Part shown: positions 3,459 through 12,027 of the stretch, piece after piece
Layout of the letters: each line of letters starts with the position of its first letter
How positions within the stretch are numbered: position 1 is the first letter of the stretch
Virus record (IMG/VR): IMGVR_UViG_2703718837_000007
Strand: one strand, 5' to 3'
Length of the DNA stretch: 14,864 nucleotides
Source of the DNA: a virus
Lineage: Duplodnaviria; Heunggongvirae; Uroviricota; Caudoviricetes
Position numbers and translations under genes: made by a program
Notes under the pieces: generated by a model
The model's input: the letters and a program-made list of their open reading frames with translations, nothing else
The model's database searches: none
What the model was told of the DNA's origin: nothing

Positions 3459-3696
3459 CAATGCTTTTAATTCAACCTGGATTGCGCAGTACGCCGACCG
3501 CCTGTTCCTCTCTGCAACCACTGACGGCATAAATTACGGGCGTGAGCAGATGATTGAGCAGAATGAACCGTTCGTTTACGACAAACGCGTTTTGTGGAAG
3601 CGAGTCGGGCGCATCAGGAAAAATGTCGGCTTCAAATTGCGCGTTATCACGAAGTCACCTGTCACTCTGTCTGGCGCTAAGATAAGGATTGAGTAA
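3439..3696 (+). pseudogene. Probable 3'-terminal remnant (about 85 codons) of a gp10-like tail hub / head-completion gene
   Basis: Frame opens after the TAA at 3436..3438 and ends in a TAATG overlap with the needle gene, as gene 10 precedes gene 26 in P22. Assigned by synteny only; P22 gp10 is about 470 aa, so at most the C-terminal fifth is present. The sequence itself was not recognised. Confidence 0.35.
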
Positions 3697-4544
3697 TGGC
3701 GGATTCGAATCTCAATGTGCCGGTAATCATTCAGGCTACACGGCTCGACACATCAGTCCTTCCACGCAATATCTTTTCGCAGTCGTATCTGCTTTACGTT
3801 ATCGCACAGGGTACTGATGTTGGTAACGTGGCTAACAAGGCCAACGAGGCCGGACAGGGCGCTTATGATGCACAGGTCAGGAACGATGAGCAGGATGTGA
3901 TTCTCGCTGACCATGAGCAGCGAATTTCTGCTGCGGAAGCAACGCTTGTTAATCATGAGGAGCGAATCAGCCAGGCAGAATCAACTCTTCAGGAACATGA
4001 AACGCGAATCGCTCAGAATGAAAGCGATATTGCGTCTCTTGATACCAGAGTTCAGTCGCTGGAGTCGCAGGTTTCAGACCATGAAACGCGCATCGATGCT
4101 CTTGAGTATGCCACTACTCGCAAGAAGTCAGAGGTTGTTTACTCTGGCGTATCTGTAACCATCCCGACAGCGCCGACCAACCTTGTTAGCCTGCTGAAAA
4201 CGCTCACGCCGTCATCCGGCACGTTGGCACCATTCTTCGACACCGTTAACAACAAGATGGTTGTGTTCAACGAGAACAAAACACTGCTCTTCAAGCTGTC
4301 GATTGTCGGCACGTGGCCCAGCGGAACCGCCAACAGGTCAATGCAGCTAACCTTTTCCGGCTCTGTTCCTGACACACTGGTAAGCAGCCGCAACTCGGCG
4401 ACAACAACCGATAACATCTTGTTAGCTACGTTCTTCAGCGTGGATAAAGACGGCTTTCTTGCCACAAATGGCAGCACGTTAACCATTCAGTCAAATGGGG
4501 CGGCGTTTACTGCCACAACCATCAAGATAATCGCGGAGCAGTAA
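3696..4544 (+). CDS. Tail needle (P22 gp26 family), 282 aa, with a C-terminal globular domain unlike P22's
   Basis: N-terminus [43 protein letters not shown]...[16 protein letters not shown] closely matches the recalled P22 gp26 N-terminus, followed by HExRI coiled-coil repeats. The C-terminal 140 aa or so differ from P22. Confidence 0.9.
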
Positions 4545-4999
4545 TGATTCAGTTCAAACCAACGCGAAACATCGACCTGATCGAAGCAGTCGGAAATCAC
4601 CCTGACATTATTGCCGGAAGCAACAACGGTGATGGATACGACTACAAGCCTGAATGCCGTTACTTTGAGGTTAACGTGCACGGTCAGTTTGGCGGCATTG
4701 TTTACTATCAGGAAATTCAGCCGCTTACATTCGATTGCCACGCCATGTACCTGCCAGAGGTTCGTGGATTCAGCAAGGAAATCGGACTGGAGTTCTGGCG
4801 ATACATTCTGACTAACACCACTGTTCAGTGTGTCACATCGTTCGCTGCGCGCAAATTCCGCCACGGGCAGATGTACTGCGCAATGATTGGCCTTAATCGT
4901 GTAGGAACCATCAAGAAATACTTCAAAGGCGTGGATGACGTGACATTTTACAGTGCTACACGCGAAGAACTAATCGAATTCCTGAATCACGGGAGATAG
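4544..4999 (+). CDS. gp14-like protein (P22 gene 14 position), 151 aa
   Basis: TAATG overlap with the needle gene; position between the gene-26 and gene-7 homologues. Assigned mainly by synteny. Confidence 0.55.
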   Translation: MIQFKPTRNIDLIEAVGNHPDIIAGSNNGDGYDYKPECRYFEVNVHGQFGGIVYYQEIQPLTFDCHAMYLPEVRGFSKEIGLEFWRYILTNTTVQCVTSFAARKFRHGQMYCAMIGLNRVGTIKKYFKGVDDVTFYSATREELIEFLNHGR

Positions 5000-5001
5000 C
5001 C

Positions 5002-9432: not shown

Positions 9433-9521
9433 CTTTGCAAACACCAGGAACGTGCAAAAACCAAATATGTAGAACGCAATATTCAGCATATCTCTGTGCA
9501 TAAATCCTCCGTAACGGATGG

Positions 9522-9782
9522 TTATCTGCTGTCTTTTTTATATAGCTTCTTGAGCGTATCAAAGACAATTTTCTTAACCATATCAGATTGTTGTTCTGCC
9601 ATACGCTCTGCATCGTCAATGTAAACTGATGCAGAGCTTTGTTTATCCAATGATTCCTCAATCGCTGCAATTATCTCTGAGTTCAGCGACCTGTTATTCA
9701 TCTTCGCACGCTGCTTAATTTTCGCGTGGAGTTCATGCGGAAGTCTCAAGTGAAACTGCGCCTCGTCGTATTTGCTGTACAT
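9522..9782 (-). CDS. mnt: Mnt-like ribbon-helix-helix repressor (Arc/Mnt family), 86 aa
   Basis: ...AQFHLRLPHELHAKIKQRAKMNNRSLNSEIIAAIEESL...DDAERMAEQQSDMVKKIVFDTLKKLYKK aligns with recalled P22 Mnt (...FNFRMPMEVREKLKFRAEANGRSMNSELLQIV...NDAERLADEQSELVKKMVFDTLKDLYKK). Start chosen at ATG 9782..9780; the track ORF starts 11 codons upstream at 9815. Confidence 0.8.
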   Translation of the reverse strand: MYSKYDEAQFHLRLPHELHAKIKQRAKMNNRSLNSEIIAAIEESLDKQSSASVYIDDAERMAEQQSDMVKKIVFDTLKKLYKKDSR

Positions 9783-9903
9783 CCTTGATGCCTCACCAGT
9801 TGGGTGGAATGGCATCGTAACCTACTGGATAAATACTCAATAGTACCATTTCGGTATGCAATCACATCATGGTTGCATCATATCATTCGTCTGGAGCAAT
9901 GAA
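9783..9903. promoter_or_regulatory. Divergent intergenic region between mnt-like gene and tailspike; candidate promoter/operator
   Basis: 121-bp spacer containing ATGCAA-N11-TTGCAT (9856..9878) and ATCAT direct repeats; GGAG 10 nt before the tailspike ATG. No match to the recalled P22 Omnt sequence. Confidence 0.25.
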
Positions 9904-12027
9904 ATGTCAGATATCACCGCAAATGTTGTGGTAAGCATGCCTTCGCAACTCTTCACTATGGCGCGTTCTTTTAAAGCCGTAACTAATGGCAAAATTTATA
10001 TCGGTAAAATTGACACGGACCCGGTAAATCCTGAAAACCAGATTCAGGTTTATGTGGAAAACGAAGACGGCTCTCACGTTCCTGTTTCGCAACCAATCAT
10101 CATTAACGCTGCTGGTTACCCTGTATATAACGGACAGATTGCCAAGTTCGTAACTGTGCAAGGCCATTCTATGGCTGTTTATGATGCATACGGTGCGCAG
10201 CAGTTCTATTTTCCGAATGTGCTAAAGTATGATCCAGATCAGTTTAAGGGCAATCTCCTGAGCGAAGATCACTCACTTGGCGACTCTCTAGTCATGCATA
10301 ACCCACAGTTTGTCGATAGCACATCGACCATTCTCTCAAAAAAGCTAACTATCGACCTGAGGACGCTTACAGACTACGGGTTTGCTGAGGGAAACACCGG
10401 TGCTCAGAACAAAGCTGCATTTCAGAAGGCTATTGATGATGCTACGTTGCCAACTGAGATTGTTATACCAGAGGGGGCGTTCATTGTTGACCCTGGTATT
10501 ACGATTAAGAATACTGTCACCATGATACGAGGTGCTGGCGCATATCAGTCCAGAATTTTCTCTACGGGTACAGCGGCACCGATAATCACGCAACAAGATG
10601 GGGTAATTGCGTTCTGCGAGTTCAGGGACTTTGGTCTTGACGGAAATGGCTACGCAGCTAACGGCATCAGTCTTACTGAAGCCAACCACATTAAAATAGA
10701 AAATATTGACGTGGTTAATACTAATAACAACGCAATATTAGTTAACGGTTACTCCATTGACATCATTGGGTGCCGGTTGTTTCAAAACGCCGGTAACGGT
10801 ATTAATGTTGGTGGTTTCTGCAATAATATTAATATAATCAACAGCCGTATCTATGGTAACGGAGCCGGTGGAGTTTTACTTACGCCAGCTTACGCTGAGG
10901 GCGGTATGAGCGTCAGAGTTAATGGCAACAATATAGAGCAAAATAAGTTCTACGGACTTTTGGCTTACGGGGTTAAAGGCCTTAACCTTGATGATAACTA
11001 TTGGGAACGCAACGGTGAGATTGGTTACCCGTATAGTGTACCTGAGTCTATTACAGTACGTGCGGATATCCACCTTATCGCGAACAATTTTACATTAATT
11101 CCTGACCTTTCAAAAATTAATGATACCGTATCTATTCGCGGGAATCAGCAGACCGCGATTGGCTACGCCAGCGCGCTACCTAACCAAGACGGATTTATTT
11201 TCACGAACTATGCGAAAAACCTGACGATTGAAAATAATCAGTTATTAGACGTATCGAAAGTGAATAATTTATTAGCAATGTACCACAATAATCTTTCGTC
11301 CAAAGTTACTGACAGGCTATATCTTGCCAACAACACAGTGAACTCCATAGGATACGTTGGTAGTTATGACCCGGCGACACAAAACCCTGACACTGCGCAT
11401 TTAATAGATATTGCGAACAGAGAGTTAACTGCTAACTATCTTGATCGAAATATGTTGCTCTGGACCGCGACATCTGGAACCACAGGAACATTGATAAAAA
11501 CTCAAAACATCTATGCTGGTAATTATTCATTCTTAGTTACGACAGGAGATAGAGTTTGGGGACGAACGATAGACCTCAACAAATCACCAGAACTAAAAGG
11601 GAAATTTGTATGGTTTGGTGCGTGGGTAAATGACCAGGGAGCAGCGTCAAAACTTATGTTTATAGTTAATGGTGCAGGACAAACAGACTCTACAGCACCT
11701 TTAGCTGGTAATGGGAAATGGCGCTATGTTAGTTGTGGTGTGTATATAGACGCAACGGCTACAGCTATAAATGTTGGCATAAGAAATTATGGTTCAGGAA
11801 ATGTACTCATAAACTCACCGTCTCTTTGTGTATATGGAATGCCATCAAATGCGTTACAAGTTGAAAAAACAACATTTTATCTTTCGTCAGTACCTACATC
11901 CGGTTTCTGGGATATAGGCGAACGCGTTATCAATAGCGCACCTGCTTCAGGACAACCAAAGGCGTGGACATGTAATATTGCAGGTGGTCCCGGGGTTTAC
12001 AGCTTCCTTTCTGAGGGGAATTATTAA
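9904..12027 (+). CDS. Tailspike protein: P22-type N-terminal head-binding domain plus distinct right-handed beta-helix receptor-binding/depolymerase body, 707 aa
   Basis: [26 protein letters not shown]...[10 protein letters not shown] matches the P22 gp9 N-terminal domain. Downstream, parallel beta-helix repeats ([50 protein letters not shown]) are unlike P22 gp9. The track ORF begins 16 codons upstream (9856), which I reject. Confidence 0.9.

Follow-up and report, generated by a model that had tools for sequence, protein, structure and literature searches.

How should we interpret an unbroken run of genes for the tail needle, the ejection proteins and the tailspike of a P22-like phage when the genes that build the virion are missing from the same DNA? 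This question is raised by a 14,864-nucleotide stretch (IMG/VR virus record IMGVR_UViG_2703718837_000007; hereafter the window), which equals positions 1-14864 of contig LONZ01000022.1 (GCA_001575355.1) and whose left edge is the end of that contig. An initial annotation, made from the sequence of the window, proposed that the module between 3696 and 12027 has stayed intact either because the deletion is recent or because the genes are kept under selection, for instance for complementation of a superinfecting phage or as a source of parts for recombination. We conclude, with a probability of roughly 0.85, that the window belongs to a defective prophage of the Sf6/HK620 type (P22-like, Lederbergvirus) that was recently truncated in a clone of Escherichia coli.

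The element, its borders and its deletion junctions

The window holds most of a 16.8-kb element, measured core to core, which lies at the lambda attB site between ybhC and ybhB. In sister assemblies, the order is ybhC-attL-int-xis-lar-like-early-left genes-exo'-ninE-gp10'-needle...tailspike-gtrCBA-attR-ybhB-bioA. Both ends of the element carry the 15-bp lambda core GCTTTTTTATACTAA together with lambda P' and P arm sequences, as is characteristic of an integrated prophage. These exact lambda attL and attR sites fall just outside the window, and both the integrase (356 amino acids, aa) and Xis are of the lambda type. The rebuilt empty attB between ybhC and ybhB is 100% identical to that of E. 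coli K-12 MG1655. At least 80% of this reconstructed site is covered in 3,494 of the 5,426 complete E. coli genomes, which suggests that the attachment site is unoccupied in most of them.

The contig edge has its own explanation. The first letters of the window (1-17) are the terminal 15-17 nucleotides (nt) of the right end of the insertion sequence IS2, in reverse complement. To the left of position 16 the window differs from every other copy of the element, and the 44-nt IS2 end that finishes there matches annotated IS2 copies at 100%. This insertion breaks a 59-aa Lar-like gene in the window strain only, and the gene is intact in sister copies. What lies beyond the window edge is int and xis, not head genes.

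Gene identities were taken from PHROG and Pfam profile searches together with gene calls, and they account for the whole window as one P22-like prophage; an NCBIfam search added nothing for the structural proteins. The distal end of a P22-like late operon is present and collinear on the plus strand, beginning with a fragment of gene 10 and continuing with the tail needle gp26 (3696-4544; 282 aa with an Sf6-type knob; phrog_1030 over residues 1-282, PF16532) and the gp14-like DUF2824 protein (4544-4999; 151 aa; phrog_651, residues 1-151 against 1-158 of 158). The three ejection proteins follow: gp7 (5002-5697; 231 aa; phrog_598, PF25688), gp20 (5707-7038; 443 aa; phrog_2534, residues 1-437 against 1-435 of 435) and gp16 (7039-9432; 797 aa; phrog_770 and phrog_21143, PF01464 and PF26808), the last with an N-terminal lytic transglycosylase (SLT) domain that is also seen in SLT-type matches. 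Next comes an Arc-family repressor of the Mnt type on the minus strand (9522-9782; PF11423 Repressor_Mnt and phrog matches), whose called gene encodes 86 aa within an open reading frame (ORF) that extends to 9815. The module ends with a 707-aa tailspike on the plus strand (9904-12027; phrog_8846 over its full length, PF09008) made of a P22 head-binding domain and a beta-helix receptor-binding part.

From needle to tailspike, all of these genes are full length, as had been claimed for them. PHROG coverage runs end to end, and the lengths of needle, gp14, gp7, gp20 and gp16 compare with those of the intact E. coli ANT prophage as 282/282, 151/151, 231/230, 443/443 and 797/797 aa. The coupled junctions also hold: read directly, neighbouring genes overlap at TAATG or abut at TAA-ATG, and they carry ribosome-binding sites of the GGAG type. 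One detail needs correction, which is the start of the tailspike gene, placed at 9856 in the initial annotation. The actual start is the ATG at 9904, with GGAG 8 nt upstream.

In contrast to this completeness, the full gene list from attL to attR in the sister assemblies lacks terminase, portal, scaffold, coat, gp4, a full gp10, lysis, Q, replication and repressor genes. The reported absence of capsid and packaging genes therefore extends over the entire interval from ybhC to ybhB. With essential lytic genes missing and the deletion junctions identifiable, the element is a remnant and not a functional member of the phages with a P22-type head and packaging system.

Two junctions mark where the missing DNA was lost, and three blocks of homology meet at them: in similarity searches of this region the exonuclease/abc2 block ends at 3246-3251, the nin block spans 3243-3483 and the gp10 block begins at 3471/3472. 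The first junction (3242-3245) joins an early-left 3'-5' exonuclease gene to the 3' end of ninB, with a crossover inside a shared TATT that was located by a three-way comparison of the window, the mEpX2 exonuclease gene and the Gally nin region. As a result, the exonuclease gene (2785-3252, minus strand) has lost ~87 nt of its 5' end and matches only positions 47-177 of the 177 in profile PF16473. Its 155-aa call begins in foreign nin sequence, and homology to the 549-nt mEpX2 gene ends at window position 3246. The nin fragment itself (3243-3483, plus strand; 241 bp) is 99.2% identical to HK630, HK629 and Gally, and it consists of the last 39 nt of ninB, an intact ninE (3282-3458; 58 aa; Pfam NinE) and the first 23 nt of the next nin ORF.

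The second junction (3471-3483) was placed by sequence comparison at an imperfect microhomology of 12-13 nt, TCAAC(C)TGGA(T)TT, between the nin fragment and gene 10. The gp10 homology begins at 3471/3472 in every match, and nin homology reaches 3483. Only a 226-bp 3' fragment of gene 10 (3471-3696, plus strand), which specifies the tail hub or head closure protein, remains beyond it. This piece covers positions 402-470 of the 486 in profile phrog_578 and ~75 of the 472 codons of the intact gene in related prophages, and it is non-functional. Both joins look typical of the illegitimate, microhomology-mediated type.

With phage Gally as a ruler, the missing DNA amounts to ~8.8 kb and ~14.3 kb, or ~23 kb in all. 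By the Gally gene order, the first gap corresponds to recombination functions, N, the repressor, cro, the replication genes and the beginning of nin, and the second to what is left of nin together with Q, lysis, terminase, portal, scaffold, coat, gp4 and the greater part of gp10. The 241-bp nin filler between the junctions means that the DNA was lost either in two deletions, one after the other, or in a single complex event of template switching.

From these features we propose that a prophage of originally ~39 kb lost ~23 kb through two illegitimate joins at microhomologies. One join would have run from the interior of the early-left exonuclease gene to the end of ninB and removed recombination, immunity and replication genes. 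The other would have connected the DNA immediately after ninE to the final 75 codons of gene 10 and removed the remainder of nin, the Q-type antiterminator, the late promoter, lysis, everything from terminase to gp4 and most of gp10. What was kept should be the att-proximal ends, with int, xis and the ea/abc genes on the attL side, and the distal 8.3 kb of the late operon, mnt, the tailspike and gtrABC on the attR side. On this view, too little time has passed since the deletion, given the mutation rate, for the module to have broken down, and its place beside the attR end would have spared it; maintenance would play no part.

During P22 assembly, procapsids take up the ejection proteins, and gp4/gp10 provide the attachment site for needle and tailspikes. 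The orphan proteins of the remnant should be unable to build anything in the absence of procapsid, gp4 and gp10, and the remnant would now be decaying neutrally through point mutation, insertion of insertion sequences and introns, and further deletion. The genes likely to be still useful to the cell are limited to gtrABC and perhaps int/xis and mnt.

Age of the clone and mutations since the deletion

The possibility that the deletion is recent is borne out by the distribution of the element. A strain comparison based on exact-protein look-ups yielded 19 other assemblies (NCBI, ENA, JGI and Logan) that carry both junctions and are 99.87-99.98% identical to the window. Between these copies and the window there are 0-4 substitutions per 13 kb, a divergence of at most ~0.03%, and their chromosomal flanks are as uniform as the element. 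Since these 19 assemblies share the same junctions at such identity, the remnant appears to be confined to one young clone. None of the 5,426 complete RefSeq E. coli genomes searched holds at least 80% of the window, and the 42-nt sequence across the second junction has no match in species-representative genomes and one in JGI metagenomes. Every surviving ORF was intact at the common ancestor of the clone, including the early-left genes that have no obvious use. Recency is further indicated by a 5.1-kb tailspike-gtr segment that is still 100% identical to an intact-looking prophage elsewhere, as described below.

The mutations that have accumulated within the clone speak to selection after the deletion. 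There are 13 substitutions over the 16.8 kb among clone copies. From needle to gp16, with ancestral states taken from the ANT prophage, five changes are non-synonymous (one of them nonsense) and one is synonymous: gp20 carries Q37*, G147D, G196C, H424P and the synonymous change, and gp16 carries A775T. The gp20 change His424Pro is private to the window strain. Two more, T38M and R209Q, fall in the tailspike. The two changes in gtrABC are both synonymous, and mnt is unchanged in every copy.

Larger lesions are also present. Three metagenome assemblies carry a group II intron at position 5778 in gp20 that lies antisense to the gene (Rfam RF00029, 64.9 bits, on the opposite strand to gp20); given this orientation, splicing cannot rescue gp20. 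Assembly GCA_012853775.1 has a 1,133-bp deletion from gp7 into gp20 (5604-6736) and a second deletion of 352 bp from abc2 into exo (window-equivalent 2550-2901), so decay is ongoing outside the module too. In addition, orf186 has a 14-bp deletion in one or more sister copies. The initial annotation suggested that orthologous loci be compared for intact or broken ORFs, and a premature stop and other disruptions are indeed found in closely related strains. By the annotation's own standard, such damage in close relatives counts as a refutation of retention under selection.

These data are difficult to reconcile with retention under selection. In the comparison with the intact ANT prophage, the ratio of non-synonymous to synonymous substitution rates (dN/dS) of the module genes is 0.065-0.157 (needle 0.065, gp14 0.067). 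This analysis had also been suggested, and it does reveal constraint, but we judged dN/dS against intact phages to be uninformative on selection after the deletion and used polymorphism within the clone instead. The within-clone ratio of 5:1 from needle to gp16 differs from the between-phage ratio (Fisher p = 0.0065). For the whole module including the tailspike, the eight changes (seven non-synonymous and one synonymous) are compatible with neutrality (p = 0.39) and reject the dN/dS of ~0.1 that is seen between functional phages (p = 0.0003). The changes within the clone thus look neutral.

The module is also probably close to silent, given the loss of its only known promoter and antiterminator. 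Late operons of lambda and P22-like phages are transcribed from a single late promoter, with a Q-type antiterminator that is loaded at a cis-acting site beside the promoter, and the antiterminator of an incoming phage acts only on transcripts begun at its cognate site. A crude consensus scan gave no plus-strand sigma-70-like site between 2700 and 10486. On the minus strand, there is a promoter-like site at 9910-9882, on the same strand as mnt.

Several observations weigh against this account of neutral decay. The ratio of non-synonymous to synonymous changes is inflated among very close relatives even for functional genes, and eight substitutions provide limited power. The tailspike regions of P22-like phages can have secondary promoters, as is known from BTP1 (PMC7067206). 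Most of the ~200 public samples with these proteins keep the module intact, which fits a young clone and leaves room for weak selection. No intact parent prophage was found. In addition, the mutations are not evenly spread: gp20 makes up 8% of the length of the remnant, yet five of all 13 substitutions hit it, as do two of the five larger disruptions, and three of these events are independent knock-outs. Pure neutrality does not predict such clustering (binomial p ~1e-3 to 1e-2, calculated post hoc).

Other reasons why the module might be intact

An alternative to retention by youth is that the remnant persists, in effect, as a donor of tailspike, gtr and needle genes to infecting P22-like phages, which would acquire them by homologous recombination (marker rescue) and alter their host range. 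There is relevant evidence in the region from 9715 to 14855 (5.1 kb; the 5' part of mnt, the tailspike gene and gtrCBA). This cassette is 100% identical in the intact-looking prophage L012, which occupies another chromosomal site, and it differs by two bases from prophage L011, which is at argW with IntS. The flanks of the cassette differ by 4-30% in L012 and L011, and the boundaries are sharp. This pattern shows very recent cassette exchange among P22-like genomes, in whichever direction. The tailspike-gtr cassette is shared by three prophage backgrounds, which suggests that receptor recognition travels together with receptor modification.

Recombination between temperate phages and defective prophages is on record (PMC3945230). 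However, the simplest view is that the parent phage already had the cassette, and no recombinant with remnant-specific markers was identified. A donor role also brings no obvious benefit to the host, so it leaves retention unexplained. The part of the initial annotation that cast the module as a source for recombination might therefore hold as a description of a by-product, and not of the reason for retention. As an explanation for the intact genes we consider a donor role unlikely.

The clustering in gp20 invites a second thought. Leaky expression of gp20, a periplasmic-conduit protein, might be costly in a cell that makes no virion, such that the clone has been selected to inactivate this gene specifically, while the adjacent tailspike-gtr cassette would be traded with circulating P22-like phages. 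No knock-out was seen in needle, gp14, gp16, the tailspike gene, gtrABC, int or xis among the clone copies. If this proposal were true, the remnant would offer a natural experiment in how toxic orphan ejection proteins are. The cluster has other possible sources, including chance, artefacts of short-read or metagenome assembly and a mutational hot spot. Moreover, G147D equals the allele of other gp20 types, and it could be the product of gene conversion or of an assembly chimera. Selection against leaky gp20 is a doubtful explanation at present.

It is also conceivable that selection acts on a regulatory or immunity function at the gp16-mnt-tailspike junction, carried out by Mnt or by a leftward antisense transcript, and that the ORFs merely ride along. 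The P22-like prophage BTP1 provides an analogue, in which the antisense RNA STnc6030 is expressed in the lysogen, overlaps the final part of the injection gene and the first part of the tailspike gene, and gives immunity (PMC7067206). In the remnant, mnt is intact, it has the promoter-like site at 9910-9882 on its strand, and it is unchanged in all copies. Unfortunately for this idea, mnt is only 261 bp long, which makes its unchanged state uninformative, and 8 kb of intact ORFs are not needed for such a function. Furthermore, ant, the gene that Mnt normally controls, is absent. A regulatory reason for retention is improbable.

Even less probable is that purifying selection keeps the module for its proteins, which would complement a superinfecting or co-resident P22-like phage in trans or serve the host. 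The six structural ORFs and mnt are intact in the window strain and in most sister copies, and codon-level constraint is strong (dN/dS of 0.07-0.16 against the intact prophage). This constraint dates from the life of the phage, whereas within the clone we find the 7:1 changes and three independent knock-outs of gp20 in sister strains (the nonsense codon, the antisense intron and the 1,133-bp deletion). Together with the restriction of the remnant to one clone, these observations, with their limited power, do not describe a domesticated module. Complementation of a superinfecting phage, as the initial annotation envisaged, meets a mechanistic obstacle that makes it unlikely: the deletion took away the late promoter/qut site and the Q gene, such that an incoming antiterminator could not switch the genes on, and there is no promoter-like site upstream of the module. 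The early-left genes are equally intact, and there is no reason for their selection.

Finally, the idea that the head genes are present and only seem deleted through an artefact of assembly or a window boundary that hides them, which draws on the fact that the window begins at a contig end inside an IS2 terminus, can be set aside almost with certainty, given that both junctions are inside the window, that 19 other assemblies made with different assemblers have the same junctions, and that several of these run contiguously from ybhC-attL to attR-ybhB without head genes.

Relatives, precedents and neighbouring genes

Recent truncation of a complete prophage is in keeping with what is known of related loci. 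In each of the five best-matching loci that we inspected in complete E. coli genomes, genes for terminase, portal, scaffold, coat, gp4 and a full-length gp10 precede the needle gene; therefore, close relatives of the module normally sit in complete prophages. Sf6, HK620, IME10, Gally and intact E. coli P22-like prophages share the order gp10-needle-gp14-gp7-gp20-gp16-mnt-tailspike-conversion genes. From the gp10 3' fragment through gp16, DNA identity is ~94-97% to Sf6, IME10 and the best E. coli prophages, and 87.7% to HK620. Like Sf6 and P22-like phages, the remnant has a needle with an Sf6-type knob and a tailspike with a P22 head-binding domain. Unlike Sf6, HK620, IME10 and Gally, it has no counterpart of the ~23 kb for immunity, replication, late transcription, lysis, packaging and head assembly. 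Its integration module is the lambda int/xis/att set, and not the argW or thrW types.

Other remnants of this kind exist. E. coli ZY22049 (NZ_CP103329.1, 1447260-1470543, at argW) carries an independent one, in which the deletion has fused a DnaB-like helicase gene to the gp4 3' end. The annotation of this strain shows gp10 through the tailspike gene as intact; genes for head, packaging and lysis are missing. In a separate remnant at argW, L003, an exonuclease gene is joined to the middle of gp7, and gp20 through the tailspike gene is kept. The end-points of the deletions differ among remnants, and the att-proximal end of the late operon survives each time, a pattern to be expected when a prophage loses its interior and keeps its ends. 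Strain no107, which was considered as a further head-less remnant, was rejected; it has scaffold and coat genes beside the module (annotated as frameshifted pseudogenes, in an assembly with many frameshifts), and its intS and early-left genes come after the gtr operon.

In the intact exonuclease gene, the site of the first junction falls within a 7-bp inverted repeat, GGTATTC-N8-GAATACC (window 3230-3252; mEpX2 exonuclease). The breakpoint of L003 is 7 bp from the first junction, in the loop of this repeat. We have down-weighted the proposal that this hairpin is a deletion hot spot, given that L003 was found through the same 135-aa truncated ORF, which limits breakpoints to ~140 nt and puts the likelihood of a chance coincidence at ~0.1.

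The cryptic prophages Rac, e14, Qin and CPS-53/KpLE1 of E. coli K-12 are internally deleted and keep their att-proximal ends, including tail-fibre genes, and CPS-53 keeps intS-gtrAB. These prophages are old and heavily eroded, whereas the present remnant is young, with every surviving ORF intact at the clone ancestor. Another precedent is the deleted P22-like prophage of the 2011 outbreak strain O104:H4, which keeps an intact, functional O-antigen-specific tailspike and an adjacent O-antigen-modifying gene (PMC3303846). The tailspike, the modifying gene (an acetylase there and gtrABC here) and the deletion all differ between the two remnants. Moreover, strain 55989, a close relative of O104:H4, still has the complete prophage; for the present remnant, no such intact parent came to light.

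In O157:H7, the defective prophage EC4113-1 is a small P22-like remnant in which an Sf6-type needle gene has survived (PMC3741392). That remnant is only a few genes long and is fixed in the whole serotype, whereas the present one is larger and occurs in one young clone. A 'rapid deletion' mode of provirus decay, in which head and packaging genes are lost preferentially, has been described (PMC13626063), and the cryptic prophages of K-12 agree with it. The element in the window would be a clean, datable case of this route from temperate phage to cryptic prophage, in which decay after the deletion has proceeded by IS2, a group II intron, a nonsense mutation and further deletions, with gtrABC so far without damage. 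Its intact tailspike is predicted to be a ready-made O-antigen-specific binding protein. We find no evidence for a new biological system, and the locus matters little beyond annotation; the main leads that it offers are the clustering in gp20 and the shared cassette.

Two classes of mobile or phage-derived element were considered and rejected. The gene list includes no replication, primase, terminase or capsid-remodelling gene as would be expected of a phage satellite (P4-like, phage-inducible chromosomal island (PICI) or capsid-forming PICI), and a podophage tail without gp4 and gp10, in an element without lysis genes, does not suit a tailocin. No tRNA was found in the window, and a PADLOC search of 10 accessory proteins returned no defence-system match at E <= 1e-3.

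Within the module, the 797-aa gp16 is the long form of the protein (SLT region 7039-7660), which is also present in the intact ANT prophage, whereas Gally and several other P22-like prophages have a 665-aa form. No arc or ant gene is found beside mnt. A perfect inverted repeat, ATGCAA-N11-TTGCAT, is located at 9856-9878 in the 121-bp region between mnt and the tailspike gene, beside the minus-strand promoter-like site. In this phage type, with mnt but neither arc nor ant, the repeat is a candidate for the Mnt operator.

At the left, the early-left (ea/abc) genes occupy 187-2768 on the minus strand and, by Pfam matches and gene calls, specify a dATP/dGTP pyrophosphohydrolase-DUF551 protein, Ead/Ea22, DUF7739, a Lar-like protein, orf186, DUF2737 and, at 2475-2768, the anti-RecBCD protein Abc2. 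Their DNA is 96-99% identical to that of lambdoid and P22-like phages. At the right, a gtrC-gtrB-gtrA operon (12065-14864, minus strand; PF00535 and PF04138) adjoins attR, and its composition of a GtrA flippase, a GtrB bactoprenol glucosyltransferase of the GT2 family and a serotype-specific GtrC is that of a lysogenic conversion cassette with a predicted role in O-antigen glucosylation. The GtrC position is filled by a 506-aa membrane protein that relatives annotate as a glucosyltransferase domain protein, and the three genes appear in those genomes as yfdG, yfdH and glucosyltransferase.

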